Source of the DNA: Paraspadella gotoi
Taxonomy: Eukaryota > Animalia > Chaetognatha
Length of the DNA: 64,000 nt
Assembly (NCBI GenBank): GCA_051294375.1
Contig: CM119266.1
Coordinates: 1,617,554 to 1,681,553 of the forward strand
Direction of reading: 5' to 3'
Numbering within the stretch: the first letter of the stretch is position 1; each line of letters opens with the position of its first letter. A program made the position numbers and the translations under genes. Shown here one piece after another: positions 7,901-59,197 of the stretch. The notes beneath the pieces were generated by a model. It worked only from the letters and a program-made list of their open reading frames with translations. It made no database searches and was not told the DNA's origin.

Positions 7901-10900
7901 AACTCTTACTCCTCATATTTATCTTCAGCTACAAGGAGATATCAAATAATCAATAATCAATCAATGAAACTAATAAAAATTATATCCTGACACTTTTATT
8001 TCCCTTTTTTTCCCACTTACCTTTTTTATCTGATCATCCCGATCTCTTTCTCACCAAACGAATTCATCCAAACGGCCATATTTTTCAAAACCTCCCCATT
8101 TCAGATGAAATAAAAGAAGAAATCGTTTGTTTTTTTTTTTCAATTTAAAAATATTAAGGTTCAAATTAAGTTAAAGAACAGAAATGGGGCGGTTTCTTTC
8201 TACCTGCCCTAACCTTTTTCTACATTCTATGTTCTATTTTTCAAACCCAAGATCCCCCTCAACCACCTTCCCCCCATCCACCATTCCCAGCCCAGTCAAC
8301 CCACCTTATCGCTCAAATCCGCCATCGTCTCCCCGATTTCTCGCAGATTTTCCTGAAATTCTTCCTGTTGCACCAACGAAGGCAGAACCGCCAAGTCCAT
8401 CTTCTTGTTCAGCTCCATCAAGGCCCAGAGTCGGTCGGCCTTGGTGCTTTCCAAGTGGGTCACCTTGATTAGGAAGGTTCCATCGGACAACGTCTCTCCC
8501 ATTGAGTTTGGACAAAAGCAAAAACCTTTTCTTTCAACATTTTGATGTCCCTCGAGTGTTCGTCGGTGATGACAGTGAGGCTTTTGATCGTCTCCTGTTG
8601 CCGCAACACCTCGTCCTTGATTTTGCGCTGGGTTTCGCCGAATTCCTCAAGGGTCTAGGATCGTCGAGGATTGAAGCAAGAATTAAATTTATACAGTTTT
8701 ATTAATCAAGTGAGTTTACACAAATTTTAGCTTAGCAACGACCCGTCTTCAATTGTAAAAATTGGGTTATAAAATTGTAACATTTCCCGCCAACCTGGTC
8801 GATCCTATCTATTTGTTCCGCCGCTCTCATTTTCTCCTTCTCCATCTCTTCCTTCATCGAGTCCAGATTGTCTTTGAGGCCGGCGACGCCGCCGCCCTCC
8901 CGCTGCTCCTCCTGCAGCATCTTCTTAAAGGCGTCGAGTCCCCCTCCGGCCAGCATCTTCACCAGATTCGACATCAGGTCGCCCTGGGTCGAGGTGAAGA
9001 GTAAAGGGTGGGTGAGGTATGAAGGGAAAAAGAAGCAATCTTGAGGCGACTTACCTTAAGTTTTACCAATTGTTAACCTCCATTCCTTTTCTCTCTCTCT
9101 CTCTCTCTCTCCCTCTCTGAACAACTGAACATGTCTGTTTTTGTACTTAAACAAGAAAAAAAGGCAAAGAATGTTATGCATGTACCTTATTCTGTTTTGA
9201 ATGATCACCCAGTCTGTTTAAAAGCGGCTTATATTTTGGTTTTTCGTGTACTTTAGTTTCCATTTATTTCTTTCAAATTTTCCAACATCGCAGAGTTAGT
9301 TTCCCATATTAAGCACCATAACATTTCAACTGCACCATAGCCTCGATTTTATCAGCATCATTAAATTCTACCTGCACCATGGCGTTCCTAAACTTCATGA
9401 GCAACTTGATCTGCGTGTCGTGCATGTTGAGCCTTTCCTCGGTGGCGCCGCGGAACAGCGCCATCTGACCCAAACCAGCGAGTGTCTTTTGCGCCTCGCT
9501 GGTGCCTGTCAAGAAAATAAAAAAGAGTAAACAAAAACCTATTTCTTACACAGAATGAATATTTTATCAAGCATAGGACCAAACAAGTTTACCAAAGAAA
9601 ACCATCAAGCAAAAGAAAATCAAGAAATGTTGCAAACAAGCAATTTTTCGAAGGCGATTAACTAAAAAATCATTCAAGGAACCAAATTTTAAAAAAAAGT
9701 AAACAAAACAACCAGGTAAGCTAGCAAGCTTTTTTTAACAACCAAGCAAGCAAACAGCCAATCAAGCAAGCAATCCGTCTCGCCTTCTTCGTGAAAGATC
9801 GACTCTGGTTCTCCATCGAAGGGGCTCCAGTCTTCGTCCGAGTCCAAGGGTCGGTCGTACTGACGCGTGGACGGCCGACTCGACTGTTTGGTGGAAGGTC
9901 GAGACGAGGCCTTCGTCGATTCTTGCGCCGGAGATCGTCCGCCGCTTTTCTGGGCTCCGCCGGCGTCGGAAGGCGGCGCCGATTTAAGGGAGACTGGAGG
10001 CGGCAGCGTATCTTCGACTGCGCCGCCACCGCCAGCTTTCTTGCCAGCTCCCGCGCCGCCGGCTCCACCTCTGGCTCCCCCTTCTCCGCCACCGCCAGTT
10101 CCAGCTCCTGCTCCGGCTCCTTTACCTTTTCCTCCTCCTCCTCCTCCTCCTCCTCCTCCTCCTCCTTCTCCTCCTTTATCCTTCCCTCTATCTCCAGCAC
10201 CTGCCTCTACTTTCGCTCCTGCCCCGGCTCCAGCCCCGGCTCCAGCTCCTCCTCCTCCGCCGCCCTTTCCTTTGCCCTCTTCCGCTTTGTCTTCAGCCAG
10301 GGCGACGTTTCTCTTTTCGCTTGCTTTTCCTCCTCCTGCTCCTCCTCCTCCGCCTGCTGGAGTGGGACTCTTGATGACCGGTTTTGCTTCCGAAGCTCCA
10401 GTTCCCCCTCCTGCTCCTCCTCCACCACTATTCGCTCCACTATCACCCCCGCCACCGCTTTTTCCTCCTGCTCCTCCACCTCCCACCTTTCCTCCTTTTT
10501 TCCCTCCTTTCTCTTGCTCGTCCTCATATTCGGACTCACCTCCGCTCTTTCCTCCCTTTCCTCCCCCTCCTCCTCCTCCTCCTCCTCCTCCTCCTCCTCC
10601 TCCTGTTTTGGTCTGACCTTTACCTCCTTGCGGTTTGATGTCCTCTTCGTCTCTGGAAACTAAATTAGTGAAAGATAGTATAAGCTAAGTTATAATTTCT
10701 TAGCAATAATTAAAATTAAAAACTGCATTTGTATTAAAAAAATGGCTCATGTATGAGAAGGAAAAGTATGTAAAAGTAAAAATAATAATTAGAACTAAAA
10801 TTAAAATAATAGATTTAGGCAATTATCATTAAAAATTTAAAAGTAACAAGACTTAAGGAATAAGGAGACTCCGTTTTGATATATATAATCTCTCTCTCTC

Positions 10901-10912
10901 TCTCCATCTCAT

Positions 10913-10958
<46 letters not shown>

Positions 10959-12144
10959 TCTCTCTCTTCCATCTCTCCCTCACCCTTACGCTCCTCTTCT
11001 CCTTTCCCGCCACTAGGGGGCGGAGCGCTATTTGGTCGTTCCTGCTTATCCTGCTTTCCCCCACCGCCGCCGCCGCCCCCACTGACGCTGGCGGCTCTGC
11101 TCTGCGGGCGGCTGCGCCGGCCGTCGGAGAATCCCTCGAACAGAGAGGAGTCGTCGTCGGTGTCAAAGATGCGACTCGCTTGACGAAGAGATTTGCGACC
11201 AGACGTTGCCGCTTGAGATTTTCTTGTTTGGAGGAGGAAATAAGATAAGAGGAGAATAATTAATAATTAATAATTAATAATTAACCTCTCACCCATCTTC
11301 CTTTGACCTTTCCCTGCCACACCCTTCTTCCAAGTCAGTCATTCCCCACTTCCTCACTACTTGTCCTGCGCTTCAAATCTTTCCCCCCTCTTTCTGTGTT
11401 CCCTTCTTCTTCAATCTCTACAACGCTTGTCCTGCACCTCGAACCGCTCCCTCTCTTCCTTTGTCCACCCCCTGCCTTCTCCCTCTCTCCCTTCTTCCTC
11501 CCTCCCTTCTTCCTCAATCTCCTCACCGCTTGTCCTGCACCTCGAACCGCTCCCTTCTCTCCTTCATCTTCCTCTGCTTCTCCTCGATCTCCTTGATCTT
11601 TTCTTTGTCGTCGCTGAAGAACTTTTTCGCATCCTCCAAATCCCGCCAGGTTCGCTCGTAGTCTTCGTGAGTCTTTTGTTCGCCGAGATGGAGATGTTCG
11701 TCCAATCGGCCCCAAGTCACCAAATTCGTTTCTGGTCGTTTTGTTTAATGCTTAATGTTTGTCAAGTTTGTAAAGTAATATATTCTGTTCCTCTTTAGAA
11801 AAATGTAATGTTTTCATATCTTATTATTGATATAATTTCAAAAGAATATTTTCTTTTGTATCGGCTCGATTCTAAAACCTTAAAATATATAAGAAATTTT
11901 TCATAACCAAAAATAAGAGAGCGAAGTCAGATTGAGCAAACAATTTAGAAACCCCCCCTCTTCCACACCCACGTATCCCTTCCACACCCATGAATCCCTT
12001 CCTCACCTCCAGCGATCATATCGGAGACGAGTTCGAAGACTCGATCCACGCCTTCGGTGTTCGCCTCCACGCGCTTCGCCAGCTGTTCGGCGAAAAGGGA
12101 AGTTAATGGTCAGGTCAAGTCTAGTCAAGACGCTGTTCTTGAGA

Positions 12145-12208
<64 letters not shown>

Positions 12209-12948
12209 GTTCTCGCCACCTCTCCAACCTTGGTCATATTCCACGCGTCCTTCGTTCTGTTAGTTACATCCGTATCTTCGCCGGCGAAGTTAAAATCCGG
12301 GGGCAGACCGACGTCGTCAGTATCGACGACGTCGTTTTCCAACTGATGAAAATAATAACAAGATATAAAAATAATAATATTAATATTAATAAGACAAAAT
12401 ATAATTGATATGTAAAAATCATATCTCAAGTCTAAAGGGTGGTTTAGAAAAAAAGCTGATAAGAGATATGATTTAAATTCTAAAAATAAAATTGCGGAAC
12501 AACCCAACCTTTTCGATTTACTTAATCTTTAAAATCAAAGATCAAATGGAATTCCCGTGAAAAGATCGAGTGATATCTTTACAGTATGTCCTACCGTTAA
12601 TTATTTAATTATACCTTGTTGTTATTGTTATTATTATTACTATCATAATCATGATTAAAAATATCATTTAGTATCATATTATTTTATTATTATTTGATTT
12701 GATTTTACCTTTTATTTTTAAACCCATTGATATAAAAGCTTTCAACTTTACAATTTCGGTATAATATTGTAATCGGCCCAATTGAAGAAAATGGGATGAA
12801 ACCCGCCCTTCCCCGTTTCACCCCGTTGGCTGTGATGAGCCTCTTGATGCAGACATAGAGGAGATTCAAGTTGAGGCATCCTATGTCCGGACTTCCGATG
12901 GCCAAGTCAAGCGCCTTCAGCAACGGAAGTTTATTCTTTCGCGCCCAT
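4952..12948 (-). CDS. QRICH2/C16orf96-like (DUF4795) coiled-coil protein, multi-exon; exons approx 12948-12810, 12342-12230, 12082-12007, 11731-11526, 11230-10986, 10652-9775, 9506-9372, 8985-8794, 8654-8526, 8463-8305, 7762-7611, 7319-7127, 7039-6862, 5700-5523, 5169-4952
   Basis: Family motifs occur in order: LDLAIGSPDIGCLNLNLLY, AWNMTK|LAKRVEANTEG, LVTWGRL, LESTKADRLWALMELNKKMD, KFHCASCDRP...PYTVF and RRCGGVHT. The last four exons were phase-checked (7127 would use a GC donor, AG|GCGAGT). The ATG at 12948 is 1 nt out of frame in a G run. Confidence 0.8.
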
Positions 12949-14388
12949 GGTCGCCGCGCCCAGTCGCATCGCAGTAGCCGATGATTTTTTAAGTCGAAAA
13001 AAAAAATAACGTCACTAAAGTTCCACTACTTTAAAAGACATTTTTAGATTAAGACAAATTTTATTTTGATTATCCTTTAAAATTATGTATGAATGGATTC
13101 TAAACCATTTCGCTTCGTCGGACTCATTTAGTTTACGGCGCGTGGAATTCGAAATTTTCTAATATTTCATTTTAATTACTATTTACAATACTGCCTATTC
13201 ACTAATTGATTACTCTTTTCTAAAGCTAACTCCAATATTCTCTTTGTTTCCGAGTAATTTACTGTAATTAATTATCCAAAGATTGTTTTTGTTTTAAAAT
13301 TTTTATATTTATTGGTTGGTTTTTGTTTTTTTGTCATCTTAGGTCAAATATTTTATCTGCTATTTTAAGTTTCTTATATATATCTCCTAGAAAACCCGTA
13401 AAAACGGTCAAAATATTTCACGATATTATGCAATCTTCGTTGCATCATTTTCATCGAATCAGAAGATCACTAATTTAGGATAAAATCGGAGTGAAGAGCC
13501 GGTGAAACACCGGACGCTGCACCCGACTAGCCTTCGCTGGATCGAAAATTTCAAAAGCACTGGCAACTTTAGCAAATAAGAAATTCAGTCCCAATGTCAA
13601 ATGATTTGTGGGTCGAAGCGGAACCGGCTGCTGCTCTCTGCACCGCAGTCTAACTTGACGGCTCGACGGTTGGAGCACCGGCGGCGGCGGCGACTCGAAA
13701 GATTGTTTAAATTTCAGAATTATCACGAAGTTCATGCATCTCTGCATCTTTTGTCGATTGTTTTTTGTTCATTCTCTTGAACATATTAAATTGTTGTCTT
13801 TTCTTTCTCTTTCCAGAAAAAAATTGTCAATTTAAAAATCTGATAAACATTTTTACGGGAAGCATCATTATTTTAAAAATTTATATAAAGAAATTAAATA
13901 AATGTCATTATTATACATAAATATAAAAAGGAAAAAATAATGAAGTTCATTATAAAATTTCATTCCGAACAAGTTTTTTTTTTTTAAATCCGCATCCGAC
14001 TGAATTGCCCCCTCAATACAAAATCTGCCTCGTCATGATTCCTCGTATTTCTTTCTCTGGGTTTCCCGGTCCTTCACGTCTTTAAAAATTCATATCCCTC
14101 GTGTGATTTTAAACAAAAATCTATATTCATTAGAAACAATTAACTTTCTCTTCGTAAAAAAAACTAATCGATCGAATTTTTTCTTTTATTTCTTTTCCAA
14201 AACGATTTCTCATTATTTCTTTTCCAAAACGACTCTATGATTTCTCATTATATACTTTTTGACATCCTCGTCTAGTGGTTTCAGCTCTCAGTTTTTTTTT
14301 TAGGTTATTTTCTCTAATACTTACGTGAATTACTACTTCCAGTAAACAATCGACTTCCTATCATTTGTTAACGCAAGATTAACTCACA

Positions 14389-17300
14389 ATGGCCGCGGCA
14401 ACGAGCGAGATCAATGACAACAACAGCAAAGAGGAGGCGGAAGAGGCGTTGAAGCCGGTCGTCGACGCCTCCGACTCGGACAGCTCCGACTCCGTGGACT
14501 CGGACGACTCCAACGAAGGGGAAGAGGACGAGTCCATCGCTCGACTCATGGCTGCCATCGAGCTGGAGAAAGAGAAGAAGAGAGAGCGAGAAGCGGCGCT
14601 GGAGAAAGAGAAGAAGGAAAGAGAGGCGGCTCTGAAGCAGAAAAAGAAAAGTTCCAAAAAGAAAAGTTCCAAAAAGAAAAGCTCGAAAAAGGAAAAGGAA
14701 TCGGAGAGGTTGAAAGAGCAGCGCGCCGCCTTGAAGGAGCAGTTGAAGAAATTAAAGGAGGAAGGAGAGCGATTGAAGCGGACGGAGGAAGAATCGGATT
14801 CGGACAGTTCGGACGAGAGGTGAGTCATCGGGAAAGGGTGGTCAAAATGGTCATTGGTCACTCAGGGACGTGTATGATAGGGTGAGGTGAAAGTTTGGAA
14901 ACAAAATTTAGCAGTTATATCTTGAAAACTATCATATTGGTGAATACTAATCTGTACTGTAGTTTTTTTTCTTTTTTATCGTCGCAAACGCAAAGCGATC
15001 TAGTAACGCTTTTGGGCATAAGTGGCGTAGGCGTCGTCATCGTTTTCGTCGTCGTCGTTGTTGTTGTCGTCGGCGTTCCAAAATATAGATCGCCTTTTTT
15101 ATGATTAAATTTGGGTGTATGAAGCTGAAAATTTATATACAGCTTCTCATCATCGATGTGCTTGAAATTGAGTCAAGACAGTTATTAAATATGTTTTGTT
15201 TACGTTTTATCAAAACAAACAATTTTTTTCTCTTTTATTTTTATATGAAAATTTTCAAATTACTTGTTTCACTATTTTTTATTTTTATATTTTATGAAAG
15301 ATTTACCATTTAATCTATATTCTTTAAATATATATATATTGCTTTCTTAAAAATTTTTTACTTATCATTATATCTAATAACTCAATTTGGGAATGGGAAG
15401 TCAGTGTTGTCTTCTGGAAATAGAGGGAGCATCTACACAACACAAGGTTAGATTACAATCTGTCCTAGTTTTCTAATAGATATCACACATCATTCCTGTT
15501 AGAAAGTCATTAATGAAAAATCATAATATCTAATAGGCTGAACAGAAAGGGGTGGGAATGGATAATTTTTGATGGGGGACCAAAGTTATATATGATTTTT
15601 TAAAAAAACTAATAGGGATAAGACTACAAAGTAGAATTGTATGTTCTGATAGGGATACATACTGGGGAAAGGTCTATAGGGGCACCTTTATGTCATGAAT
15701 ATAATTTTAAAATACTTTAATGAAAATAAATTTTTTCCTTTATCCTAATTTTTAATTATTCTATTTCTGAATATCTTTTATCTATTATGTTTATACAATG
15801 GGAAGGTCATCAGTTGGGAACCTATACCCTTCATGGATTTCATATATCATTCTCTCTCTCTCTCTTTTCTTTTTTAATTATAAGTCTCTCTTTTCCCTAG
15901 TCACTGATTCACAGGGGGGAAAAACGAGTCTGCAGCTGGCTCTGCAGGAGCTTATTCTTTTTCTTTCTTTTCTCCTGCTGCTTCTGCTGCTGCCTTTTCG
16001 CTTAGCGTTTGCGACGATAAAAATGTAAATCTTTTTTAAAAAAATGTCATTAAATAGGTTAAAATTACAAAAAACTATATTTTAAAGCTGGAAATTGAAA
16101 ATTGGTGTCTTAAATATATTTTTGTTAGTTATGACCAACTTTAATAACAATAATAACAATAACAATAATTTTCAAAAAAGAATTATACTTTCTTAAAGCA
16201 ACTTTTTGCGATGAATCCAAATCCGATCTTAAAGTTTAAAAATTTGTAATTCGAGTGGAGGGGCCTGCCATTTCTCTCCTCGCTTCTTAGTATCTTTGTC
16301 TTTAGGTATTCATTAGGTTGTCTTTATTATGAATTTCCGCCTTGTTGTATTTTATAAGTGGTTTCTTAATAAGATAATGGCATTTGCTACGTAGTGTTAG
16401 TTAGTTTTTTTTAGGTTTGTTCGGGAGGTGGTGGTTTCTGTGGTTTCGATTACGCACAAATTTTATTTAGGGATAGTGCAATTAGGTTAGGTTTTGGCTC
16501 TTAAAAATAACTTAAGTACGGGGATTTAAACAAAACTTCGAAAGTAGATTGTGTGGGCAAACCAAATTTCAGGATTGCTCTCCATCCTGGAATCATAACC
16601 AGATTATAATTCGGGTGGATAATTGAAAATTAATGTATTAATTTTTTTTTTTCATTCTTTTATAATAACTGAACTGTTTGCCCTTTGTTCAGTTCTGAAT
16701 GTTCCACGCCGCCATCTTCAGAGTCATCGGATTCCTCCGACTCCGGCGCCGGAACTCAAAACCGGAGCTCGCGTAAATCGAGGCGAAACAAAGGAAAAGG
16801 AAAAAAAGGGAAAAAAGGATCAAAGAAGAATGTGGAGGCGAAACTGGACGAGCTGTTGGCCAGGGAATACGAACAGCTGAAGAAAGAAAAAAAGGATAAA
16901 AAGCAGCGGATCGCGGAAAAGCTGCTGGAGCTGGAGAAGTTGAAGGAGGCGAGAACCAAGGAAGACTCGAAATTCAGCAAGGCCTTCAAAAAAGCGAACG
17001 ACGACCGGAGCCGTCTGCTGAAACTGGAGCAAAAGGAGAAAGAAGACGCGGAGAAGCTCAAGATGGAGTTGGACAAGCTGGAGAAGGAGAACGCCCGGAA
17101 GATGGATGAAACCATTATGACGGCCGCATACACTAGAGAATTGACCTTTATGCTGGATAAAGAAAGGTCTATGAAGTTTTCTATGGTGAAGAGAAAGGAA
17201 GAAATTTCTCAGCTTTTGAGGCTGATGAAGAAGGCACAGATCGTGGACGTTTGTTTCTTGGTCGATGCTACTGGTAGCATGAGCAGATACATCGCCGAGG

Positions 17301-18736
17301 TTCGTGATAAGATCAAAAACCTGGCGACAGAACTCTCGGTCAAGCACAAGGACTTGAGGCTCAACTTGGCCTTCGTCGCCTACCGGGATCACTGCGACGC
17401 CGGTACAAGCTACGGTCAGTTCAGCATTTTCCCGTTCACGTCATCCTTGGACGACTTCAAGAGGTTTGTCGGCACCGTTAAGGCCGGCGGCGGAGGTGAC
17501 GGTCCTGAGGATATCTTTGGAGGATACAAAAAAGTCACGGAGCTTAATTGGCAGGCGCCAACAACGAGGGTCTTGATTCACGTGGCCGATGCCCCTTGTC
17601 ACGGAACGCGATTTCACTCGATGGCTGATGATTACCCAGCTGGAGACCCTAACGGGCTCACGGCCGAGGATCTCCTCAAACGGCTACGCGTAGACTGCAA
17701 CATCTTTACATACATGTTCTGCCGCATCAACAACTATACGGACAAAATGATCGAAGAGTTCCATCTCATACTGGACCAAAACAAGGATTGGCTTAAGGTC
17801 CTGCCCATGACCTCCATGAACATCTTCATGGATTCCGTCTCCAAAACAATTTCCTCCTCAATCATAGACGTGGAGACCAAAACCGTCTCGTCCTATATGT
17901 CAGAAGGAAAAACCGCCAAGCGCGAGTTCACTTTGGACCCCAGAAAGCCAACCGACTGGAGCGACATCTCGGTGAAGGAGTTTGAGTGCAACTTTTATGT
18001 CATGCCCGAGTTGCGCTCGCCCGATCCGACGAGCATCTTCAAAACGATCCAAGGGCGTTTCGAAATGCAGACCTCTCGCGGTTGCGTGCAAATCGCGCCC
18101 AATCCCTTCGCCAAGGGGGCGTTGAGGGTGGTGTATCACGCGAGAGAGAGAGGCAGTAGTGAGTTAGATATGCGTTCCTGCGTGATTAAAGATTACATCG
18201 CCGTCGACGTGAAGGGGAACGCCCAGGAGAAGCACACAAGCGAGATGGAAACACAAGTCGTAGCTTCCTTCCTGGCCAGCTGCTTCAACAAGGTCAAGCC
18301 CAGAGGGGCCAAAGACATGTCCTACCTGCGAACGGAGACCATCAATGTGGAAGGCATGGGCTTTTTAACCAAGGAACAGTACCTGGATGGCAGTTATCAA
18401 AAGTTCAACAACAACTGGGGCTGGGTTGACGAGGAAACGTTCAGCGCGTCAATCCAGGCTTTCAGCCACTGGACCTACGACGTAACCGTCGGCTACTTGA
18501 TCGTCGTAGATCTTCAAGGGAAGAAGAATGAGTCGACGGTCGTATTGACGGACCCCGTCATTCACTGCAAGAATCTTGACCGCTTTGGACGCACGAATCT
18601 GGGCGGAAAGGGAATTTCAAAATTCTTCAGGACTCACGCTTGCAACAAGGTGTGCATCAAGATGGGACTCAAGACACACCGTGAACAACCGCTTTACAAG
18701 GGAGTGCCGGCCTCCGGGACAGTGTTGCTGGAGTGA
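14389..18736 (+). CDS. Coiled-coil + vWA domain + alpha-kinase (VwkA-like), join(14389..14819,16693..18736), ~824 aa
   Basis: Phase-2 intron AG|GTGAGT...TTCAG|T. vWA: DVCFLVDATGSM, LAFVAYRDH, GGGDGPED, VLIHVADAP. Alpha-kinase: PFAKGALRVVY, VIKDY, KFNNNWG, QAFSHWTY, VVDLQG, LTDPVIH, FGRTNLGGKG and Zn site HACNKVC. Confidence 0.93.
14972..16022. mobile_element. Probable non-autonomous HINE/MITE-like insertion in the kinase intron
   Basis: Inverted pair TTTTTATCGTCGCAAACGC(A/T)AAGCGA at ~14972 (+) and ~16000-16022 (-), with a (GTC/GTT)n microsatellite just inside the left end. Confidence 0.45.
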
Positions 18737-18984
18737 ATATGATTTTTTTAAATGTTTTTTTGTTAGTTGGATTCTTCAGCTTATTACATGTACTTTTAAT
18801 TACATTAATATTGTAATGGCTAAGTTTTTTTTCCCCTTCCCCAAGTTGTTTTTTTTTGGTTTCGAGTATATTTATACTATCTTTAAGTTGTATATTTTGT
18901 TTGTCTTTAATCAACAATACACAATTGCTTGTTCAATCTGCCATAGTTTATGCTTCAATTAACAGTTTTTAAGTTATTGACCAA

Positions 18985-21801
18985 ATGGCGGCGGCCATGG
19001 ACATTGATTTTCCCGAAGGGACCGATGAGGACACGATCCATCGAATTCGCGATTTAGAGCGACTATTGGAAAACGAAAGAAACAAACTCGCGTCCCGTTG
19101 CGTCATCGGGGACAAACCCAAGAAGCCTCTGGCTAAACCTCCGCCCTTCGAAGCTTTGGAAGAGCAGAATACGTTCGAGCGGGCGCAAGAGATCGTCGAC
19201 GAGGAGGCAGATACTCGGCCCGACATTGTCGAAGTTTCGACACCTCCATCGAAGGCTTCGCCGAAAAAAGAAGAAAAGAAGGAAAGAAAAAAGAAGGAGA
19301 AAAAGGAGAAGGCCATGGCTGAGTTGGAAAAATTGCGGCAGGAAAATGCGGAGCTGGAAAAGTTGCGAAAAGAAAATGAAGAGCACGATAAAATCTTGAA
19401 AAAGTTGGAAGCGGAGATCGAGAGGAACAAAGCGGAAAGAGCAGAGAAAAAGGAAAAGCTCAGAGTAGAAGAAAAGAAAGTCAACGCGGAGACGCTACGG
19501 CTGCAGCAGGAAATCGAGAAGCAAAAACAAATGGCTCGTCAAATATCCGCGCAGCAGCAGCGAGTAGGACAGCTGTTGCACAAGATGAATAAAGTTCGAC
19601 ACGTTCAAATCTGTTTCGTTACCAACATCCGAAACAAATCGGCGGAAGAAACGTTTCAAAAGGTTTACTGCAATGCGCAATTAATTGCATACTATCTGAG
19701 GCAAATGTTTTCCAAGCTGCAATTGGAGTTTGGCTTTGTTTTTGCCAGCGGGTACGCTAGCGCTCAAAAATTAGATTTCGACTATCAAGAAGCTTCCATA
19801 AAATGGTGTAAACATTCTGAATACAAGTGTGATTTTGACAGCGTCTTAAAAGAAACTCCTCACCTCAAATGGAACAGGGATTCTTTTAATATATTATATT
19901 TCCTCGTTGATTATTACCAGACTCCTACAAAAACTAAGGCAAAATTGGAAGAAGCTTTTAAAGACAAAGGACTTCGTAGAGTTATTGTTTCGACTGAAAA
20001 ACTCTTGACCAAACACGCACAAGATGGCTGGAAATCGATTATGCCTGTAGCTACATTTATAAGACAACATATCAATAAGGAAAACATAGTCTCTACCATA
20101 CAAACCTTACTAGAATCATTTCTCTGGTCTGAAGAGAATCAAGTGTTTAGGGACATGGCTTATGGAACAAACCCATGCCAAATTCCCTATCGAGATCCAC
20201 GACAGTGTACTGTTAGGCAACAAGGCGTTTTGCGCTACATGACAGTGAGAAAAAATCCGCCATCGTCAAGACATTACTACTTGACACGTGACGATATTGA
20301 GTCTAATATTTTTCAAGAACAAAAGACATTCGAAATCTTAAGGAGCTCAACGCCTTATGAAAATGATAGCGTTTGGAGCAAATACCAATGTTATCATAAT
20401 GACCAAGTGTTCACGTTGAAATGCTTCCATACCAACGATCTCTCTCACGATAAAAACATGATTGGCAGTATTTTGGAATCTATGAGCACGGCGAAATTTT
20501 TAGGGAATATTTTCAACGAAATGATTCCGACGAAAGAAAGTTTGTTTTTTGACGAGAAAAACAGTTTCGAATCCAACGACGCTGTGTTCCTTATTGAACC
20601 GATCGAAAGAGGCGAAAGGTTTTTCCGTTTTGACTCGATCGAACCGTTGACAGCTTTTTCACATTGGACTCACCACGTCACGAACGGCCTTCTCTTGGTC
20701 GAAATCATTGAAGCCTCCAAGACAGAACGCGGATATCATGTCAATGAGGTCGCTGTGCACTGCAAAGAAGTCCTTTCCTACGCGATGTCAAACTTGTCTA
20801 ATTCAGGAGTGGATAAATTCTTCGCTCGACACTCCTGCAACGCGATTTGCGGAAACCTACGACTGAGGCGGCATCCGAAGCAGGAAAAGGAGCCCGTTCG
20901 GGAAGTAGAGCCGAAGGTAGTCGAGAGTAAAGGCTACTTTTCGTCGATCGGTTCCAAAATAAAGAACGCTGTTTGGAGCGACGATCAGAACGGAAAAGAT
21001 CCTAAACCGTGTGAGCTCGCGTCGCTCGCCAATGATCGACGAACTGACTACGACGTTCGACGCAAGGAATACTCCTCCAACGATTACTCAAACGACAAGC
21101 ATTTGTTGCCAAATCCTAGTCCTCTTTTCGCTAAATCATCGCCGGCGGCGTCTCCCGTCGCTAAGCATAACTCCGAGAGAAAGCTGCCTCTGTTAGTGAC
21201 CGCCGGCGGTAAGAGCGGTTCAGATCTCGGCGAGCCGAAAGCTCCTGGTCTTTTGGAGAGCTCCCGGCGAGATTGTCAATCGAAAACCGATTCAGAACGA
21301 CAGATGTCTCCGGAACGTCGGGACAGCGGGCGGAAGAAGGTCGATAAAACAGAGTGTATAAGCTTGCTTGATAAGAGACAAGGACGCCATTCCAGTCCGT
21401 CAAAATCGCCAGAACGGAAGGGTCATCAGCCGAGGAAGATCAACGAAGCTCATGAAGACCCAATTGTCGAAACTCGTAAGTCTCCGGAACGAGGTGCCGA
21501 TCCATTGAATATTGGTAAAGATGATAAGTTGCTTGCTGGGAAACAAAACAAAAGATCCGATCGGTCGAGGTCGCCCGATAAACGGAATGCCGTTCTTAAG
21601 CATGCAAACAAAAACGACCATGCAAGCATGCTTTCCAGTCGACCCAAGAACTCGTCTCAATTGCAAGAATCCGTGCCAGAAGGCTATTGCGATTGTAGAC
21701 CCAAAGATTCTCAATTGAAGATGTTGTTGACGACAAAACCGACAAAGGACGGTTCGATGTTTCCAGAAGGCGACGAAGACGAATCTGAAAAAAGATATTG
21801 A
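18985..21801 (+). CDS. Intronless 938-aa paralog: coiled-coil, degenerate vWA, predicted alpha-pseudokinase and Ser/basic low-complexity tail
   Basis: Collinear with the upstream kinase: KVRHVQICFV~KAQIVDVCFL, LQLEFGFV~LRLNLAFV, STAKFLGNIFN~VVASFLASCFN, AFSHWT, HSCNAIC~HACNKVC. DLQG becomes IIEA and LTDP becomes VNEV. Confidence 0.88.
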   Translation: MAAAMDIDFPEGTDEDTIHRIRDLERLLENERNKLASRCVIGDKPKKPLAKPPPFEALEEQNTFERAQEIVDEEADTRPDIVEVSTPPSKASPKKEEKKERKKKEKKEKAMAELEKLRQENAELEKLRKENEEHDKILKKLEAEIERNKAERAEKKEKLRVEEKKVNAETLRLQQEIEKQKQMARQISAQQQRVGQLLHKMNKVRHVQICFVTNIRNKSAEETFQKVYCNAQLIAYYLRQMFSKLQLEFGFVFASGYASAQKLDFDYQEASIKWCKHSEYKCDFDSVLKETPHLKWNRDSFNILYFLVDYYQTPTKTKAKLEEAFKDKGLRRVIVSTEKLLTKHAQDGWKSIMPVATFIRQHINKENIVSTIQTLLESFLWSEENQVFRDMAYGTNPCQIPYRDPRQCTVRQQGVLRYMTVRKNPPSSRHYYLTRDDIESNIFQEQKTFEILRSSTPYENDSVWSKYQCYHNDQVFTLKCFHTNDLSHDKNMIGSILESMSTAKFLGNIFNEMIPTKESLFFDEKNSFESNDAVFLIEPIERGERFFRFDSIEPLTAFSHWTHHVTNGLLLVEIIEASKTERGYHVNEVAVHCKEVLSYAMSNLSNSGVDKFFARHSCNAICGNLRLRRHPKQEKEPVREVEPKVVESKGYFSSIGSKIKNAVWSDDQNGKDPKPCELASLANDRRTDYDVRRKEYSSNDYSNDKHLLPNPSPLFAKSSPAASPVAKHNSERKLPLLVTAGGKSGSDLGEPKAPGLLESSRRDCQSKTDSERQMSPERRDSGRKKVDKTECISLLDKRQGRHSSPSKSPERKGHQPRKINEAHEDPIVETRKSPERGADPLNIGKDDKLLAGKQNKRSDRSRSPDKRNAVLKHANKNDHASMLSSRPKNSSQLQESVPEGYCDCRPKDSQLKMLLTTKPTKDGSMFPEGDEDESEKRY

Positions 21802-27444: not shown

Positions 27445-30400
27445 TTAAAGCTGCCGTGCCATCCTGATGCAGCAGAACGCGACAACGGCGATGATGATGA
27501 TGATTACGACAATAGCGACGACGATACCGATGATCATGCCGAGACTGAGAACGCCCTGTTGACGATATCCCGGCCCTGTTAAAAAACATAAAACAAGTTT
27601 GAGCAAACGATGTCGGATCTGCCCACGATAATTAAGCGGTAATCAGATAAATAAATAAATACTATAGTAGAAATAATTACAAATAATTTTTTTAAATATT
27701 ATTAATTTTTTTAACTTGCATAATTTTTTTCAATTTGCATAATTTTGTCAAATTGCATCATTTTGTCAAATTGCATCATTTTGTCAAATTTCATCATTTT
27801 GTCAACTTGCATACTTTTTTCAACTTGCATTATTTTTAACTTGCATCATTTTTTTAACTCGCATCATTTTTTAGATTCGCATTATTTTTTCAACTTGCAT
27901 CATTTTTTCAACTTGCATCATTCTTTCAACTTGCATCATTCTTTCAACTTGCATCATTTTTTCAAATTGCATAATTTTTTTACATAATTAATTAATTAAG
28001 TAAGCATAAATAATAAAAATTCAATTCAACTTGACTTTTAGTTTTTTTCATGCAAACTCATTTCCACTTTTCGATTCCATCAAAACTTTATATCTTACTC
28101 AATCATACACTTTCCTACCCACACACAAAATTTAATCTCGATTTAATTCAATTAATTATGGGTTGAAATTAGTAAAAAGATTCAAATAAAAGTGACTTTT
28201 GTTTTTTCCATTTAAACTCATTTCCAATTGCACGATTCCATCAAAACTTTATATCCAGCTCAATCATACACAAAGTTTTATTCCAATACATCCATCCGAT
28301 TACGAGTAATTGGAGTTTAATGAAAAGGTGGGACGGACCTTCAGACAGACAGATGGACGGACAGACATTATTTTTGCTAAATTTAGCATAATATGTTCTG
28401 ATGTGATAAAAATGATTTACCGACAAGATTTAGGGGTGGGACCGAAGGACCAACAAAGTGAATTATAGAGTCGGAATCTGCTGATAAGCAGATCCGACTA
28501 AAAACGAACCTTTAAAAAATAATTATAATTGTTGCAAGCAAAAATTTTCTATGAAATTTACCGTAGGGTCTGTTATACTCTTCTCTGTATCGATATTCAT
28601 TTCTGTATCCGTTTTCGTAATATTCGTTGCCTTCAAAAATTTCTCCCATCTAAAAATGGAGTTCAATGTTATAATTACCTTATATAATAAATGATTTAAA
28701 AATGATTTAAAATCCAAATCTACAGATTAATATTCATTTCATGCATTAAAAATTTGCCCGTAACAAAAATAAAATAATTTAAACATCAAAATGCGTTTGT
28801 TGTTACAAATGCGATTTTACATATTTGTTTTTAAAACTAACCAAGCATTCAAAAATTGACGTCAAGTCAAACCTGTACAAGTTCTTTTGATTACAACTTG
28901 TTAAAATTTTCAAGATATCAACTGAGCGTTCAAAGAAACCAAACCCAAAAAAAAGACCTGACAAAAGAAATTAAACACTTACCCTTACCCTCGCGCGCCC
29001 ATACTGTGGATTTTTAATACAATAACTTAACTTATAATTATTTACTATAAAACGACGCGCTTCTAAAGTCAGGCCTCAAAATTGTTACAAGTAAAGGTAA
29101 GGGTTCAAGCTTAAAAAATAAATCGATTTAGTCCATTACACATTAGAGTAATAACATATATACAGAAACTCTATAGTATGAAATTGGTACAACCAATATA
29201 AAAATTATCCATTCATTTATAAATAAGCTATCTTGCCCCTGACTTTGGACAGGCTTTGGTGGTTTAAGGCCTCCATCACTCTACAAGATAATTACTAGAG
29301 GTCCCTGCAAGCTTCAATCAAGACTCTCTCACAGTCCCGTTTATTCACTCCAGAGTACCTGGGCTTCCCTATCAATGAAGTGGAAAATATTTCAAAGAAT
29401 GTTTCATTGTATGAAAAGACCACTCCCTTAAGTATTAGATCGGGGAATACTTATTGTACTCCGCACTAGCATCAAAATACAAGGAGCTGAATTTTATGAA
29501 ATTGGTACAACCAATATAAAATTGTCCATTCATTTAATAAATAAGCTATCTTGCCCTGACTTTGGACGGCTTTGGTGGTTTAAGGCCTCCATCACTCTTA
29601 CAAGATAATTACATAGCAGGTCCTGCAAGCTTTCAATCAAGACTCTCTCACAGTCCCGTTTATTCACTCCCAGAGTACCTGGCTTCCTATCAATGAAGTG
29701 GAAAATATTTCAAAGAATGTTTTCAATTGTATGAAAAGACCACTCCCTTAAGTATTAGATCGGGGAATACTTATTGTACTCCGCACTAGCATCAAAATAC
29801 AAGGAGCTGAATTTTATGAAATTTGGTACAACCAATATAAAAATTATCCATTCATTTAATAAATAAGCTATCTTGCCCCTGACTTTGGACAGGCTTTGGT
29901 GGTTTAAGGCCTCCATCACTCTTACAAGATAATTACATAGCAGGTCCCTGCATGTTGTAGTTTGGATCATAACAAGTCAGTTTGAACGGCGACTCACCCG
30001 AACTCTTGGCCCGACCCTGACTCTTGGCGTCAAACGAGGCGTTAGTCTCGTTCTTACCGATAGCGATTCATCTGAAATGGACATTTAATATTCATGATGA
30101 CCAACTAATGAAACATAGTACCATGGGCCCGGTTAGAGAGCAAAGAATATTTTTAATTCATTATTGAACCGAACTTGGGTTAGATTATAAGTAAATTATT
30201 TTAGCGTAATATTCATATTGCTTTTATGGTTCGGTTAGCTCAGCTGGTTAGAGCGTGGGGCTAACAACGACAAGGTCGAGGGTTCGATCCCCTCCCTGGC
30301 CAATGCCCATTTCTTTATATTTATTTTATGTAATACCTTTTCATTTTTTTTTCGTTGTCTTTCTTTTCTTTCAAAAAAAAATATATATTTCTGATTACTG

Positions 30401-51183: not shown

Positions 51184-54100
51184 ATGTCTCGAATGCGCGA
51201 AAACAAGAAAAACGCAAAAACTGCTCGGCAAATGCGGCAGCGCCACAGCGACGTCTTGATCGAGCTGCGCAAACTTCGACGTAGCGTCCAACTCCTCGAG
51301 CGTCGGAGCCTTTTTATTGAAGATATTGCCGAAGATTTGGTCGGCGAGCTACCCGACGATCCCGCGGAGATTAAGTTGGCGGCGGAGGCCAAAGAACCGC
51401 GGGCGTCTACTACGACAGCAGCTGGAGCGGAGGAAGCTCCGCCTATGGCGGTTGCAGTGGAGAAAGCTCTGCCTGAAGCGCCTGCAGTAGAGAAAGCTCC
51501 GCCCGAGGAATCTCCTGCAGAGGTTGCTGCGGTGGAGGAATCTCCAGCAGAGGTGGCTACAATGGAGGAGGCTCTGACGGCGATGGAGGAAGCTTCTTCA
51601 GAGGTGTCGGATGTTAATCTGGTGGAGGAAGCTTCATCAGAGGCAGCTTCGGTGGAGGAAGTTCCGGCGGCAGTAAGTCCGGTGGACTGCGCCTCTCCGG
51701 CTTCAACTGCGGCGGAAGCAAAGACTCGGGCTCAGAATCAGATGAAAAATAAAGTGGCTTTCGTGACCAGCTATCTTTGCACTACTAATGCTAAGCTGGT
51801 TCATCGTGGTATTCGAATGGCTCGTCTCACGATGACGCGGGAGAAGAGCGACTTTGTCCAAGAATTCCTCGCGAGGCAGAGCCTCAACCTGCTGGTCCGC
51901 TTTTTGCAGCCGGAGACTAGCATCGTACAGCAGGAAAGAGACCAAAGCCCACTAAACTCATTAAGGTTAGACTCGGCGAAAGCGTTGTTAACGATCGCGC
52001 TCGAGTCAAAGGAGGCGGCGGCGGCGGTGGCCGATGCCGGCGCCATACCGCGCCTCGTCCACTTTACGAGATGCTTCGGTCATGTCGAGGTCGAAGTCAT
52101 CCAGCAAGCCCTTATGACGATGGGCGTCATTGCTAAGGCAGGCCCCGACTATAGAGACATGGTTCTGCGGAGCGGCGCTTTGCCGCCGATGCTGGAGCTG
52201 TTGAAGACGAGCCATTGGGCAGGTAAAAAAATTCGGGTTGAGAATCCCGATAAAAATCCGGGTTATAGATTTTTATTCTAGAAGGCTTTTCTATAAAATA
52301 ATTAGTGAAAGATTAAATTTTACGTTCGCCTACTGGGATTATCGCTACTTACGAGTAGCAATTTCAAAAAAAATATTTCATAAAAATGATAAAAGTTGTT
52401 GTCTAACTACCCTAACCACCCCTAATCCTAGTCAGCCAATGTAAAATTAGCTAAATAATTTTATAATGGTTGTCCAAATTTTCTAACCAGTTTTTTATTT
52501 TTTTTTGTTTTTTAGTCGTATTCTCATAGACTTGGTATCAAAGTAACATTGTTTTCCTTATTTTGAACTACGCTGCGTTCGTAAGCCGCGAGCCGCTAAT
52601 TTGTCCCTGACCCGCTTTTAACCCTGACCCGCTTTTGTCCCTGAACCGCTTTTGACCCTACTATTTTAACAGCATTAATCAATCACATCGCCTTCGCTCT
52701 GCGTCGCCTCTGCATGCACGCGGAAAAGCCCCTCGACGTCGACCTCATAAAACCAGCCTTATGCATTCTCCTCTCCTTTCTCAAGTGTCCGGACCCCAGC
52801 ATACAGTTCCACGGCAGTCTCTCATTGGCCGAACTGTCGGAGATGGGGGAACCGGTCGTCGAGGCCCTCGTGAAGTCGCACGCGGTCCCAGCGCTCGTCC
52901 CCGGGCTGAACGGCGACAACCCGAGGCTGATGAGACCCTGCCTCGCAGCGCTGCGGAATATCGCGCGCGGTACGCAGAGCCAAGCGCAGGTATCTTTGTC
53001 AAGGTTTATCGTTATGAAATTGGTACAACCAATATAAAAATTATCCACCCATTCAACAAATAAGCCATCTTGCCCCTGACCTTGGACAGGCTCTGGTGGT
53101 TTAAGGCCTCCATCACTCTTACAAGATAATGACATAGCAGGTCCCTGCAAGCTTTCAATCAAGACTCTTTCACAGTCTCGTTTATTCACTCCCAGAGTAC
53201 CTGGCTTCCCTATCAATGAAGTGGAAAATATTTCAAAGAATGTTTCAATTGTATGAAATATAAAAATATGAAATATAATTATCTGGGTTTTTTCTTTCAT
53301 AATTCAACTGGTTCATTTCCTTTTTTTTATATCTTCCCGATTATTTCGGATTTTTTTCATTTTCTTTCCCCTTCTACTGATATTCTTTCTAGCTCGCTTA
53401 TTTACTTTTATCATTCACTCAATTCTATTATTTCCTCTTTCGACACCCAGGCCGTCGTCGACGCGTGCCCCTGGTCCCAACTCGGCTCACTGCTCCAGTA
53501 CGGAGACCCCTATATTCGGTACAGAGTGGCTTGGTTGATCGGCGACGCGCTTCGCTGGTTTGAAACCGAAGAAGAGTCCCTAGTCAATGCTGTTGCGGAT
53601 GGAAATCTGTTGACGCCTCTGACGATACTCGCTCGAAAAGGACTTGAATACGTAAGGACATCGGGGAATGGGGGGGGGGAGAAATAGGTAGTTTTAACTA
53701 ATTCGAATTGGGAGGCTGAAAGAAAAGAGGCTGAGGGGAGTTGCTCCTCAAGCAAACGAGGATGTTACATAGAATATTTATATTTATTTATTTCCGATAA
53801 AACTCGTTTCAAACCTTACGACCCAGATCAGATATCAACCCTTGATTCTTAATTTAGTATAGGACCTATTTATTTTTCTTTTTTTTTTCTAATCGCAGGT
53901 TCAGTCTGCGGCACTCAGAGCAATCTTCATCATTACCAACTATAAATCTCCTCAACTCGTCAAGAATTTCGATTTGAAGCTCGTCATTGACTATTGCAAT
54001 CTTCTCGACTGCAGCGGTCGCGATTCCAAGGTGAGGCTGCTTGGTTGAATCCGAAACTTAACTTTTAGAATAGTAATGTTTAAAATAGTTAATTTGCGCA

Positions 54101-55490
54101 CCTTGGTTTTACTGAGACACAAAGGTGAAACCAAAGTGGATTTTATTTCTTTAGAAAATGGTCAATAATAAAAGACGGTGCCAATTTTCGGGGCAGAGTA
54201 AATCAATACAGATTTGGTTCAAATTTATACAGTTCCATCGGATCGGAGGTAAGGGTAAAAATCAGCGGCGGATGGAAGCCTATCCGATCATTGGCCGGTG
54301 CCATTTGTCTCTTGACCCATGAGAAAGTTCCATTCTGGTTCCGGCGGATTTCACCCGAGTCGTTGACCCGATTTCGTTTCTGGAGACTTGATTCCTCTGC
54401 CATGCACTCGTATGCAAAAAAAAAAAGGTGCCAGTTTATAACTTTATATTCCAGACGCTCTATAAAAATATTTAAAAATTCATATAAGCAAAGGAAAGTT
54501 TTTAGCCGGATCTATATATAGCAGATTATGGCTCTGATTCATTTTATCGCTCTATCGGTCCAACCGAAAAAAACTTGTCGGTAAGTTATTTAAACCATTT
54601 CAAATTAATCAAATTATAATAATAATTTAAGCAAAAAAAAAATGATGTCCGTCTCTGTCAGTCCCACCTTAGTTTTAATCGTAATTACTCATGAGTGGAT
54701 GGGGCGATTACTTTACAATTTTTTTGTAAAGGTAGAAAAGTGTGATTGAGCTGGAAATTAAGTTTAGATGGAATCATCCGAGTAAAAATAAGCTTTTAAA
54801 AAAAAATCTATTTAAATCTTTGATTATACTTTCTCTTTATATTAAACTCATTAATAAAATTAAAAATATAAAAATTTTAAAAAAATATTAAAATGAAATT
54901 TGATAAAAATATTGGAAAAAGATGAAAAAATAATTAATTAATAATTTGATCAGTTGCATACTGCAAAATATTAAAAGGGAAAAGATTAATCTTAAATTAT
55001 ATTTTTATACCTTTAGTACGGAGCGACCGATTTTTATAAAAATTATTACTTTTTTTTAATAAATTTTATTTTATATAACGATTTTTTTAAAAACTTAAGT
55101 AATAAGTATATAGGGTGATATAAAGTGGCGCGATTTTTTGAAACTGGCTTTAACGTAACTGACTTTTTCTACAAAACTTTATCAACACCCCTATTTAACT
55201 TTATTTTTCTTGCTCACAATTTCACTGACCCTTTTTCTCACCCTATCCAGAATCAACTGATTCTCTTGGACATAATTGACAACCTCATTTGCATCTCCAA
55301 GCGGACGAACCAATTCGGCAACATGATCTTCGACATCGAGGATTGCGGCGGACTGGACAAGATAGAGCAGCTTCTGTCCTCCGAAAACGACGAAGTCTTC
55401 GACGCCGCCACGGATATCATCGAGCAGCATTTCACAGAGAACGAAGAGAACCAAAAGAATAACACGTCCTACTTCGTTCTGAAAGACTGA
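51184..55490 (+). CDS. Divergent importin-alpha (karyopherin alpha), join(51184..52222,52673..52989,53451..53651,53899..54030,55251..55490), ~642 aa
   Basis: All junctions are GT-AG and in phase. IBB-like MRQRHSDVLIELRKLRRSVQLLERR, ARM repeats (VADAGAIPRLV, GPDYRDMVLRSGALPPML) and C-terminal IEDCGGLDKIEQLLSSENDEVFDAATDIIEQHF. Confidence 0.9.
53013..53258 (+). repeat. Single copy of the repeat that is arrayed at 29177-29953, in importin intron 2
   Basis: High identity from ATGAAATTGGTACAACC to CAATTGTATGAAA. Confidence 0.9.
54499..54850 (+). mobile_element. HINE/DINE-1-like element, copy 4 (degenerate, opposite orientation)
   Basis: TTTTAGCCGGATCT..GCAGATT, GTCCGTCT microsatellite remnant and reverse-complemented core. 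Confidence 0.6.
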
Positions 55491-58039: not shown

Positions 58040-59197
58040 ATGGCGCTCGTGTCTGCCCAATATTCTGACTCTGAGGGAGAACTAAGCGACGGAGGGCAAC
58101 GTGATGTCAACGACGATGACTATTTTAGCGATGCCCCAGCCTCTGCTCTCCGCCGTGATCCTTCCATTCTCCCCTTTGCTCATCTCTCCGCCGAAAACCA
58201 ACCCTCGGGGGGCAGCAGCGGCCACAACACGCCACCCCCTCCGCCACGTGGGGGCCGCGCCCCGTCGGGATCTCCGGACGCGATTCCGGCCTCGCTTCTC
58301 GGCAGCCGTCAGCCGAGCCCCAAGTCCGGTGGGACGGACTCGCCACTCGTTCGCCTCATGCCAACACAGCGGCTCAAATCTCACGGCCTCTCTGGACTCG
58401 TCTCTTATCCCGGGGAGGAGGAAGAGGAGGAAGATGATCCTGACAATTACGAAGTCTACGATGATTACAAGGAGAAAGAGAACGAGCCTGAGAAAAGAGG
58501 ACTCGACGAGGGACTCGTTCCCGACTACATGGATCTCTCCTCTGCCAATATGAGCGTAATGGTCGTTGAAGCCGCCCCACCCGCAGAAGGTGATTCCAAT
58601 TCCTACGCCGACACCTCCGCAATCCCGCCCGAACCTCAGGGCCGCTGCTCAAAAGCGCTACAGGAAAATATCGCCCTGAAGTATGAGCGGTATCTACGTG
58701 AGGAAATGGACTACAACAAAGCTATTCAACGCAAAAAAGAATTCAAAAATCCATCCATTTATGAAAAACTCATCGAGTTGACCGGGATTTACGAATTCGG
58801 CACCAACTATCCGGCTCAAGTATACGACCCCCATTTTTGGGGGGATCAGGCTTCCTATGAAGATTTGGCCAAAGCGCAAAAAGTTGAGATGGACAAACGC
58901 GAAGAAAAGCGAAGGGGGGAAGGTGCCAGAGCTAAAGTGGAATTCGTTTCAGGCACTGCTAGAAAACCAACTTCATCTTCCACCATTGCTGACACTGATA
59001 GCAAAGAGAAAAAGCGGAAAAGCAAATGGGATCAAGGCGCCGTTGATGGAGCGTTGGCTGCGTCGTCGGCGTCGTCGTTGTCCCTAACTGATGTCCCGGT
59101 CGCAGTGACGTCCTCGAGTGTTCTTCCCGTGGCGTCCGGTACGAAGACGACCGTTATCTCTGCTGTTGGAGGCCTCTCAAAAAAGACTAAGTCTTAA
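58040..59197 (+). CDS. SAP30BP: SAP30-binding protein (HCNGP family), intronless, 385 aa
   Basis: [66 protein letters not shown]. Confidence 0.93.

Follow-up and report, generated by a model that had tools for sequence, protein, structure and literature searches.

A probable vWA-alpha-pseudokinase gene beside an intact VwkA-type kinase gene in the chaetognath Paraspadella gotoi

The window, that is, the whole 64,000-nucleotide stretch of Paraspadella gotoi DNA analysed here, was eukaryotic in content, with spliceosomal introns, an importin-alpha gene and a SAP30BP gene. Two neighbouring genes on its forward strand, here called gene 1 and gene 2, comprise the following features, numbered from the first letter of the window.

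14073 to 14388, forward: untranslated 5' part of gene 1, up to the limit of a contig of run X7; the contig does not fix the transcript start
14389 to 14819, forward: exon 1 of gene 1, 431 nt (143 codons plus 2 nt), with a MAAA start at 14389 and an acidic, K/E-rich N-terminus
14820 to 16692, forward: intron of gene 1, GT..AG, 1873 nt, containing high-copy repeats
16693 to 18736, forward: exon 2 of gene 1, with K/E-rich helix, vWA, alpha-kinase, Zn finger and stop
18737 to 18984, forward: spacer from the gene 1 stop to the gene 2 start, 248 nt, T-rich (50% T)
18985 to 21801, forward: gene 2, an intronless vWA-alpha-pseudokinase gene by prediction, 938 amino acids
19003 to 19200, forward: N-terminal module specific to gene 2 (about residues 7 to 72), its best-conserved part among orthologs
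19483 to 19593, forward: long helix leading into the vWA (residues 167 to 203; model H2-38, pLDDT 86 to 96)
19582 to 20139, forward: predicted vWA fold (about residues 200 to 385, from structure models) without MIDAS and without the GGGDxxED loop
20209 to 20886, forward: predicted alpha-kinase fold without the catalytic Asp; Ile574 at 20704, Zn ligands H560, H616, C618 and C622 present
20884 to 21798, forward: basic Ser/Pro-rich tail, 305 amino acids

When spliced, gene 1 gave a frame of 824 amino acids over two exons with a single terminal stop. One 2970-nt contig (record 17 of X7) aligned to 14073-14817 and 16691-18942, with a junction equal to the predicted one except for the offset allowed by a shared AG. 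Because the contig matches the exon junction, we regard gene 1 as spliced and X7 as likely an RNA run. All of the motifs listed as intact in an earlier sequence-only reading of this DNA (DATGS, the catalytic Lys, DLQG and TDP) were found, as D335, K643, D750 and D764 in spliced numbering, together with FAKGALR, E705, H736 of AFSHW, and a Zn finger formed by H792-x-C794-xxx-C798 with H736. The vWA residues D335-x-T-x-S, D413 and D443 match the family, and the P-loop has a single Gly. Within exon 2, D335 of the DxTxS MIDAS lies at 17264 and the catalytic D750 at 18509, and the Pfam kinase match covers about 18110-18655. Pfam scored Alpha_kinase (PF02816) at 6.4e-45 and VWA_4 (PF25106) at 1.8e-8. 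Dictyostelium VwkA, in which a vWA is combined with an alpha-kinase and which influences both myosin II levels and contractile vacuoles, is the one characterised VwkA (PMC2827801). Like VwkA-type proteins, gene 1 has a vWA with a MIDAS and a C-terminal alpha-kinase with the invariant Lys, both Asp residues, the Zn finger and every other catalytic residue; unlike VwkA, it has a long acidic, K/E-rich N-terminus. Judged from these residues, gene 1 is a VwkA-type vWA-alpha-kinase, complete in its catalytic and Zn positions, and a predicted kinase.

The search with gene 1 returned 367 matches among 7992 scored candidates. Among the 120 listed, P0001 and P0002 stood out at 57 to 59% identity, the others being at or below 42%; the lower matches included coral "alpha-protein kinase vwkA-like" proteins and similar rotifer, fungal and protist proteins. 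The product of exon 1 resembled the N-termini of P0001 and P0002 (z 4.0 to 4.6). Three of the 4 runs have depth over exon 2, in each case from a single contig, and therefore no near-identical paralog of gene 1 is apparent.

Several other observations concern gene 1 and its surroundings. Over the intron repeats (14844-16379), summed contig depth climbed into the thousands and up to hundreds of thousands, compared with some 15 to 90 for unique DNA. In exon 1, a 15-nt repeat coding KKKSS (14640-14700) seems variable in length, and the X2 and X7 contigs carry 15 and 29 gap letters over this exon, their exact place within it not being given. Seven single-base differences among runs X7 and X1 fell within 16922-18241 of exon 2; four cluster at codons 380-382, and four of the seven, taken singly, alter a residue. 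On the reverse strand, parts of a gene lie within 8296-13750; they match DUF4795 weakly, include long exons rich in Gly, Ala and Lys, and seem to face gene 1 head-to-head. A multi-exon importin-alpha-like gene (51184-55490, forward) looks like a divergent paralog: its IBB domain is weak and is separated from the ARM repeats by a long, acidic repeat rich in Ala and Glu. SAP30BP (HCNGP), encoded by several exons in vertebrates, is intronless here (58040-59197, forward); its best matches were seven unnamed proteins at 50 to 57%, followed by named animal proteins at about 40 to 52% over the conserved part, a pattern that would fit a thinly sampled lineage of animals.

Gene 2 was open over all 938 codons, as the sequence-only reading had stated, and the other five frames carried 24 to 60 stops; from base composition, such a frame would be open by chance at about 4e-25. 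Pfam recognised only the kinase C-lobe (8.7e-12) and found no vWA in gene 2; the HMMER check proposed earlier thus agreed for both domains of gene 1 and for the C-lobe of the gene 2 kinase, and not for the gene 2 vWA, the assignment of which rests on HH-align and structure models. In HH-align, the profile of gene 2 and its orthologs was collinear with that of the intact family over 452 columns (probability 99.96%), and the helix at residues 167-203 aligned with the equivalent helix of the kinase family. The vWA model matched vWA and integrin I domains (VIA Z 11 to 12, rmsd 3.1 to 3.7, 150 to 178 residues aligned), and the kinase model matched 4kuj_A (VIA Z 21.5, rmsd 2.6, 217 aligned), the top fold matches all being alpha-kinases. 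The Atlas also grouped gene 2 with vWA-alpha-kinases (0.95). The main model (pLDDT 79.9) is biased, since its 131-row alignment consists mostly of intact kinases. AF2 run on the 4 ortholog rows alone reached pLDDT 47: the vWA part formed (block pLDDT 46 to 80), and the kinase part did not form without rows from the intact family (21 to 46). The complex runs described below, which were alignment-free, folded gene 2 at pLDDT 70 to 72. Gene 2 is thereby predicted to keep the helix-vWA-kinase fold, collinear with gene 1 as had been proposed. The tail of about 300 residues noted earlier was also confirmed, with 8 SP dipeptides against 3.3 expected; the tails of the orthologs (215 and 231 amino acids) share the SP excess and have a motif resembling R-x-R-S-x-S-P.

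X7 contained 0.94 of 548 words sampled from 16693-21801, a stretch of which gene 2 makes up 55%; most of gene 2 must therefore be present in this likely RNA run, where DNA carry-over is possible. Missing depth at the start of gene 2 is uninformative on expression because that start is blank in all 4 runs, the DNA runs included.

With phmmer over 1.84 billion representatives, gene 2 gave 356 matches at E <=0.001, and among the 150 listed only P0123 (2e-40) and P0124 (2.5e-30) spanned both domains; P0265 is almost identical to P0123. Gene 2 residues 170-640 had drawn a blank in a word-based search of 5409 candidates, where phmmer succeeded. Both orthologs match gene 2 from the N-terminal module to the SP-rich basic tail, and the orthologs of gene 1 and of gene 2 are separate proteins. 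Gene 2 is 26 to 29% identical to its orthologs (26 to 37% within the trio overall), and the gene 1 trio is 59 to 75% identical over its domains. The N-terminal module is conserved at 28/65 residues with P0123 and 33/74 with P0124 (z above 21). The MAAA start common to the two genes, which had been pointed out earlier, looks coincidental from the sequences: the orthologs begin MAES/MAEA and MATS/MATA, and only one of nine between-clade comparisons of N-termini exceeded z 3.

To compare functional residues we used 127 family rows, P0011 and P0033 being excluded because each contains two kinase modules. (These two carry two vWA-kinase or two kinase modules per chain; tandem doubling recurs in the family.) At the aligned sites gene 2 has N214 for the MIDAS Asp, YENDSV at the P-loop, K479, E538, H560, EIIEA at 573-577, NEV at 587-589, and H616/C618/C622. 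The catalytic Asp of D-[LI]-Q-G, an Asp in 124 of the 127 rows, is I574 in gene 2 and C and V in the orthologs. The P-loop Gly, invariant in 127/127, is N, Q and E in the trio; the TDP site reads NEV, TDV and SDV; the MIDAS Asp is N/N/D and its Thr N/E/H; and G411 and D413 of the GGGDxxED loop are lost in all three. The four Zn ligands (H..HxCxxxC) were retained in gene 2, P0123, P0124 and P0265. The losses and retentions described earlier were thus largely borne out (MIDAS, DLQG to IIEA and TDP to NEV lost; AFSHWT, the Lys and the Zn ligands kept), with the exception of several lost P-loop glycines, gene 1 itself having only one.

A wider count gave the same picture. Among 57 columns at least 90% conserved across the 127 rows, the pseudokinase trio kept 18 in all members, lost 26 in all and differed among its members at 13; the gene 1 clade kept 54. 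The retained positions include the 4 Zn ligands, AF-HWT and the F, D, L and W of the vWA core. Invariance within the trio was enriched at family-conserved columns (22/48 vs 54/321, p 2.5e-5). A predicted kinase fold, the loss of an essential catalytic residue and the conservation of that loss are together the sequence mark of a pseudokinase, and gene 2 has all three. Since its diverged orthologs share the losses as well as the retained Zn ligands, the N-terminal module and the SP tail, we consider it very probable that gene 2 is a long-conserved, catalytically dead pseudokinase kept for its fold, and not a decaying copy. Frames this diverged would not be expected to remain open with such a pattern in the absence of selection. 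The earlier proposal that fold but not catalysis has been kept therefore held up, with orthologs at 26 to 29% identity lacking the same catalytic residues and keeping the Zn ligands and core.

A quick tree was built from 32 hand-picked rows of the 131. Each trio formed one side of a branch with SH-aLRT 100 and with the sequence from the window outermost; these matching shapes are weak evidence, as each has three taxa and the relatives are possibly not from the same two species. Measured by tree path, the rate of gene 2 is roughly six times that of gene 1 (4.4 to 4.7 vs 0.75). The 32-row tree did not place gene 1 and gene 2 as sisters, and sisterhood was not rejected either (AU p 0.104). With a whole-domain profile of the gene 2 clade, members of the gene 1 clade came 16th, 22nd and 31st of 177, and with a hand-picked 26-residue helix, chosen post hoc, they came 1st, 2nd and 4th of 81. 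With sisterhood neither recovered nor rejected, an origin of gene 2 by tandem duplication with gene 1 is plausible. Scanning metagenomes with the gene 2 alignment left 3 loci from 277 pattern matches, none of them with synteny of the gene pair; they are not gene 2 orthologs, because the catalytic motifs are intact in all three.

The spacer between the two genes contains AATACA at 18916, which we take to be a poly(A) signal variant, the end of the X7 contig at 18942 and an out-of-frame ATG at 18950. Downstream of that ATG lies an acceptor-like TTTTTAAG, with its end at 18973 and 11 nt short of the gene 2 start codon; such a motif arises by chance at 0.05 to 0.10 per 42 nt. The contig stops 21 nt past AATACA and 42 nt short of the start codon, in data from one study and with contigs that do not fix RNA ends. 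Fusion of exon 1 onto gene 2 was also considered and rejected: joining to either AG before gene 2 leads to a stop within two codons. The same-strand arrangement at 248 nt resembles trans-spliced animal operons and falls under the 250-bp cut-off for same-strand genes in the methods of PMC12460157, and the 31 nt from the contig end to the acceptor-like AG resemble the Oikopleura medians of 31 to 33 bp in PMC7986045. Unlike in spliced-leader operons, neither a spliced leader nor a read-through transcript was seen in the assembled contigs and the Rfam search, which returned no SL RNA. (The one Rfam hit was a weak tRNA match at 30229-30302, forward, 31.8 bits.) This layout weakly suggests that the spacer acts as an intercistronic region.

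A predicted complex of the gene 1 and gene 2 products scored 0.34 against 0.00 for the best of 3 controls (runs 0.02/0.34/0.35), with contact agreement of at least 17% and partner pLDDT of at least 70. The mark for a pass was reached by 51/78 solved and 2/108 mismatched pairs (39/65 and 2/126 in eukaryotes), and at 0.60 or under it was reached by 5/78 solved pairs and by each of the 4 passing mismatches among 180. Passes this low are more often wrong than right unless the complex was likely beforehand, and the mark is uncalibrated for close relatives of a partner; the score may reflect family likeness only. The earlier suggestion that gene 2 partners gene 1, be it as regulator, decoy or substrate, is thereby weakly supported, by the 0.34 vs 0.00 and by the 248-nt spacing.

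The reading that we tentatively prefer, at a probability just short of even, is that the gene 2 product binds and regulates the VwkA-type kinase encoded upstream, with which it would be co-expressed. Gene 2 would be a dead vWA-alpha-kinase paralog retained for its fold, and its product would lack phosphotransfer, as we infer because the lost Asp aligns with D756 of MHCK-A, the Ala mutant of which is titled inactive in the PDB. The two genes would be expressed together, possibly as an operon of two that is resolved at the acceptor-like site 11 nt ahead of the gene 2 start codon, and the products would form a heterocomplex through their common helix-vWA architecture. The dead subunit would then tune or target the active kinase, the N-terminal module may bring new interactions, and the SP tail may serve as a phosphorylation target. 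Rather unlikely in our estimate is the bolder form of this scheme, a two-gene operon long kept in an animal lineage, with the active kinase and its doubly dead twin (without Asp and without MIDAS) heterodimerising, the twin being both allosteric switch and targeting subunit, a split counterpart of JAK JH1/JH2.

To our knowledge, vertebrate ALPK3 has neither a vWA domain nor an adjacent active paralog; a signalling study reportedly found it active, and its pseudokinase status is debated. It was described in 2022 as the alpha family's first pseudokinase, with a non-catalytic role proposed (PMC9698156), and it offers a precedent for a competing view of gene 2. There is a real though lesser chance that gene 2, as a conserved pseudokinase of the ALPK3 kind, serves as a scaffold with partners of its own, and that its adjacency to gene 1 is a relic of duplication or of shared operon transcription without binding. 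Its best-conserved part, the N-terminal module, has no clear kinship to gene 1, its clade has 29 invariant positions of its own, and it evolves about sixfold faster, with sisterhood unsupported by tree or whole-domain profiles. Against this, gene 2 retains the complete helix-vWA-kinase architecture of its neighbour, each gene has two close relatives among the matches listed, and the weak complex pass exceeded all 3 controls. Gene 2 resembles ALPK3 in having an alpha-kinase fold with conserved cleft residues lost and yet retained by selection. It differs in that ALPK3 keeps a predicted catalytic Asp, D1774, which was mutated in PMC9698156, whereas in gene 2 the Asp itself is gone, as is the MIDAS, and the gene belongs to the VwkA-type branch; the collinear vWA-kinase architecture is that of VwkA, from which gene 2 differs in lacking MIDAS and catalytic Asp and in continuing for 305 residues where VwkA ends (PMC2827801).

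With the acidic residues E573, E576 and E588 and the basic K479, the protein may still bind nucleotide or metal or catalyse in an unusual way, and a divergent active enzyme could be built on such relocated residues. The trio has E/D/D immediately before the lost Asp (Val in 93/127 family rows), E/E/E for the Gln after it, E/D/D at the Asp of TDP and a basic K/R/K at the beta-3 Lys, and N603 is retained. We nevertheless hold this to be improbable: gene 2 has neither the P-loop Gly nor the KFNNN loop nor the catalytic Asp, the ungapped register sets Ile574 itself on MHCK-A D756, and the alternation of a beta strand would turn the preceding residue off the cleft.

Linked kinase-pseudokinase immune pairs had been invoked as an analogy, by which the pair would be a sensor/executor module with the dead copy as decoy for pathogen effectors. 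Plant tandem kinase-pseudokinases (WTK1/Yr15, RPG1) and JAK JH1/JH2 likewise keep an active and a dead kinase together, one possibly regulating the other, and the rapid evolution of gene 2 would suit such a role. These precedents, however, are single-chain conventional kinases (PMC6170490), unlike the two separate genes here (gene 1 stops at 18736), which have alpha-kinase domains only in Pfam and come without immune evidence. Gene 1 is moreover about 60% identical to its orthologs, near the 50 to 57% of the SAP30BP gene in the window (species not matched), only two close clusters per gene appear among the matches listed, no near-identical gene 1 paralog is apparent from contig depth, and the role of the one characterised VwkA concerns myosin II levels and contractile vacuoles (PMC2827801). 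The analogy found no support, and we find an immune decoy highly improbable. That gene 2 is a neutrally decaying duplicate is largely refuted and has next to no probability left, since its very long branches and poorly similar tails are outweighed by the 938-codon open frame, by full-length orthologs at 26 to 29% identity with matching losses and retentions, and by the presence of most of gene 2 in X7.

In titles and abstract starts, our literature search found no VwkA-type pseudokinase and no linked alpha-kinase pair, and ALPK3 was the only alpha-pseudokinase encountered. A VwkA-type pseudokinase beside its intact paralog is apparently undescribed. Few pseudoenzymes are known among the alpha-kinases and ALPK3 is contested; as a very probable pseudokinase, gene 2 would be a cleaner case, with the Asp gone in three diverged sequences and on a different family branch. 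Kinases of the VwkA type occur widely among invertebrates, fungi and protists, and their activation and substrates are little characterised. A dead paralog adjoining an intact copy separates the residues that serve the fold from those that serve catalysis, and the gene pair would give a direct way to ask whether VwkA-type kinases are regulated by dimerisation.
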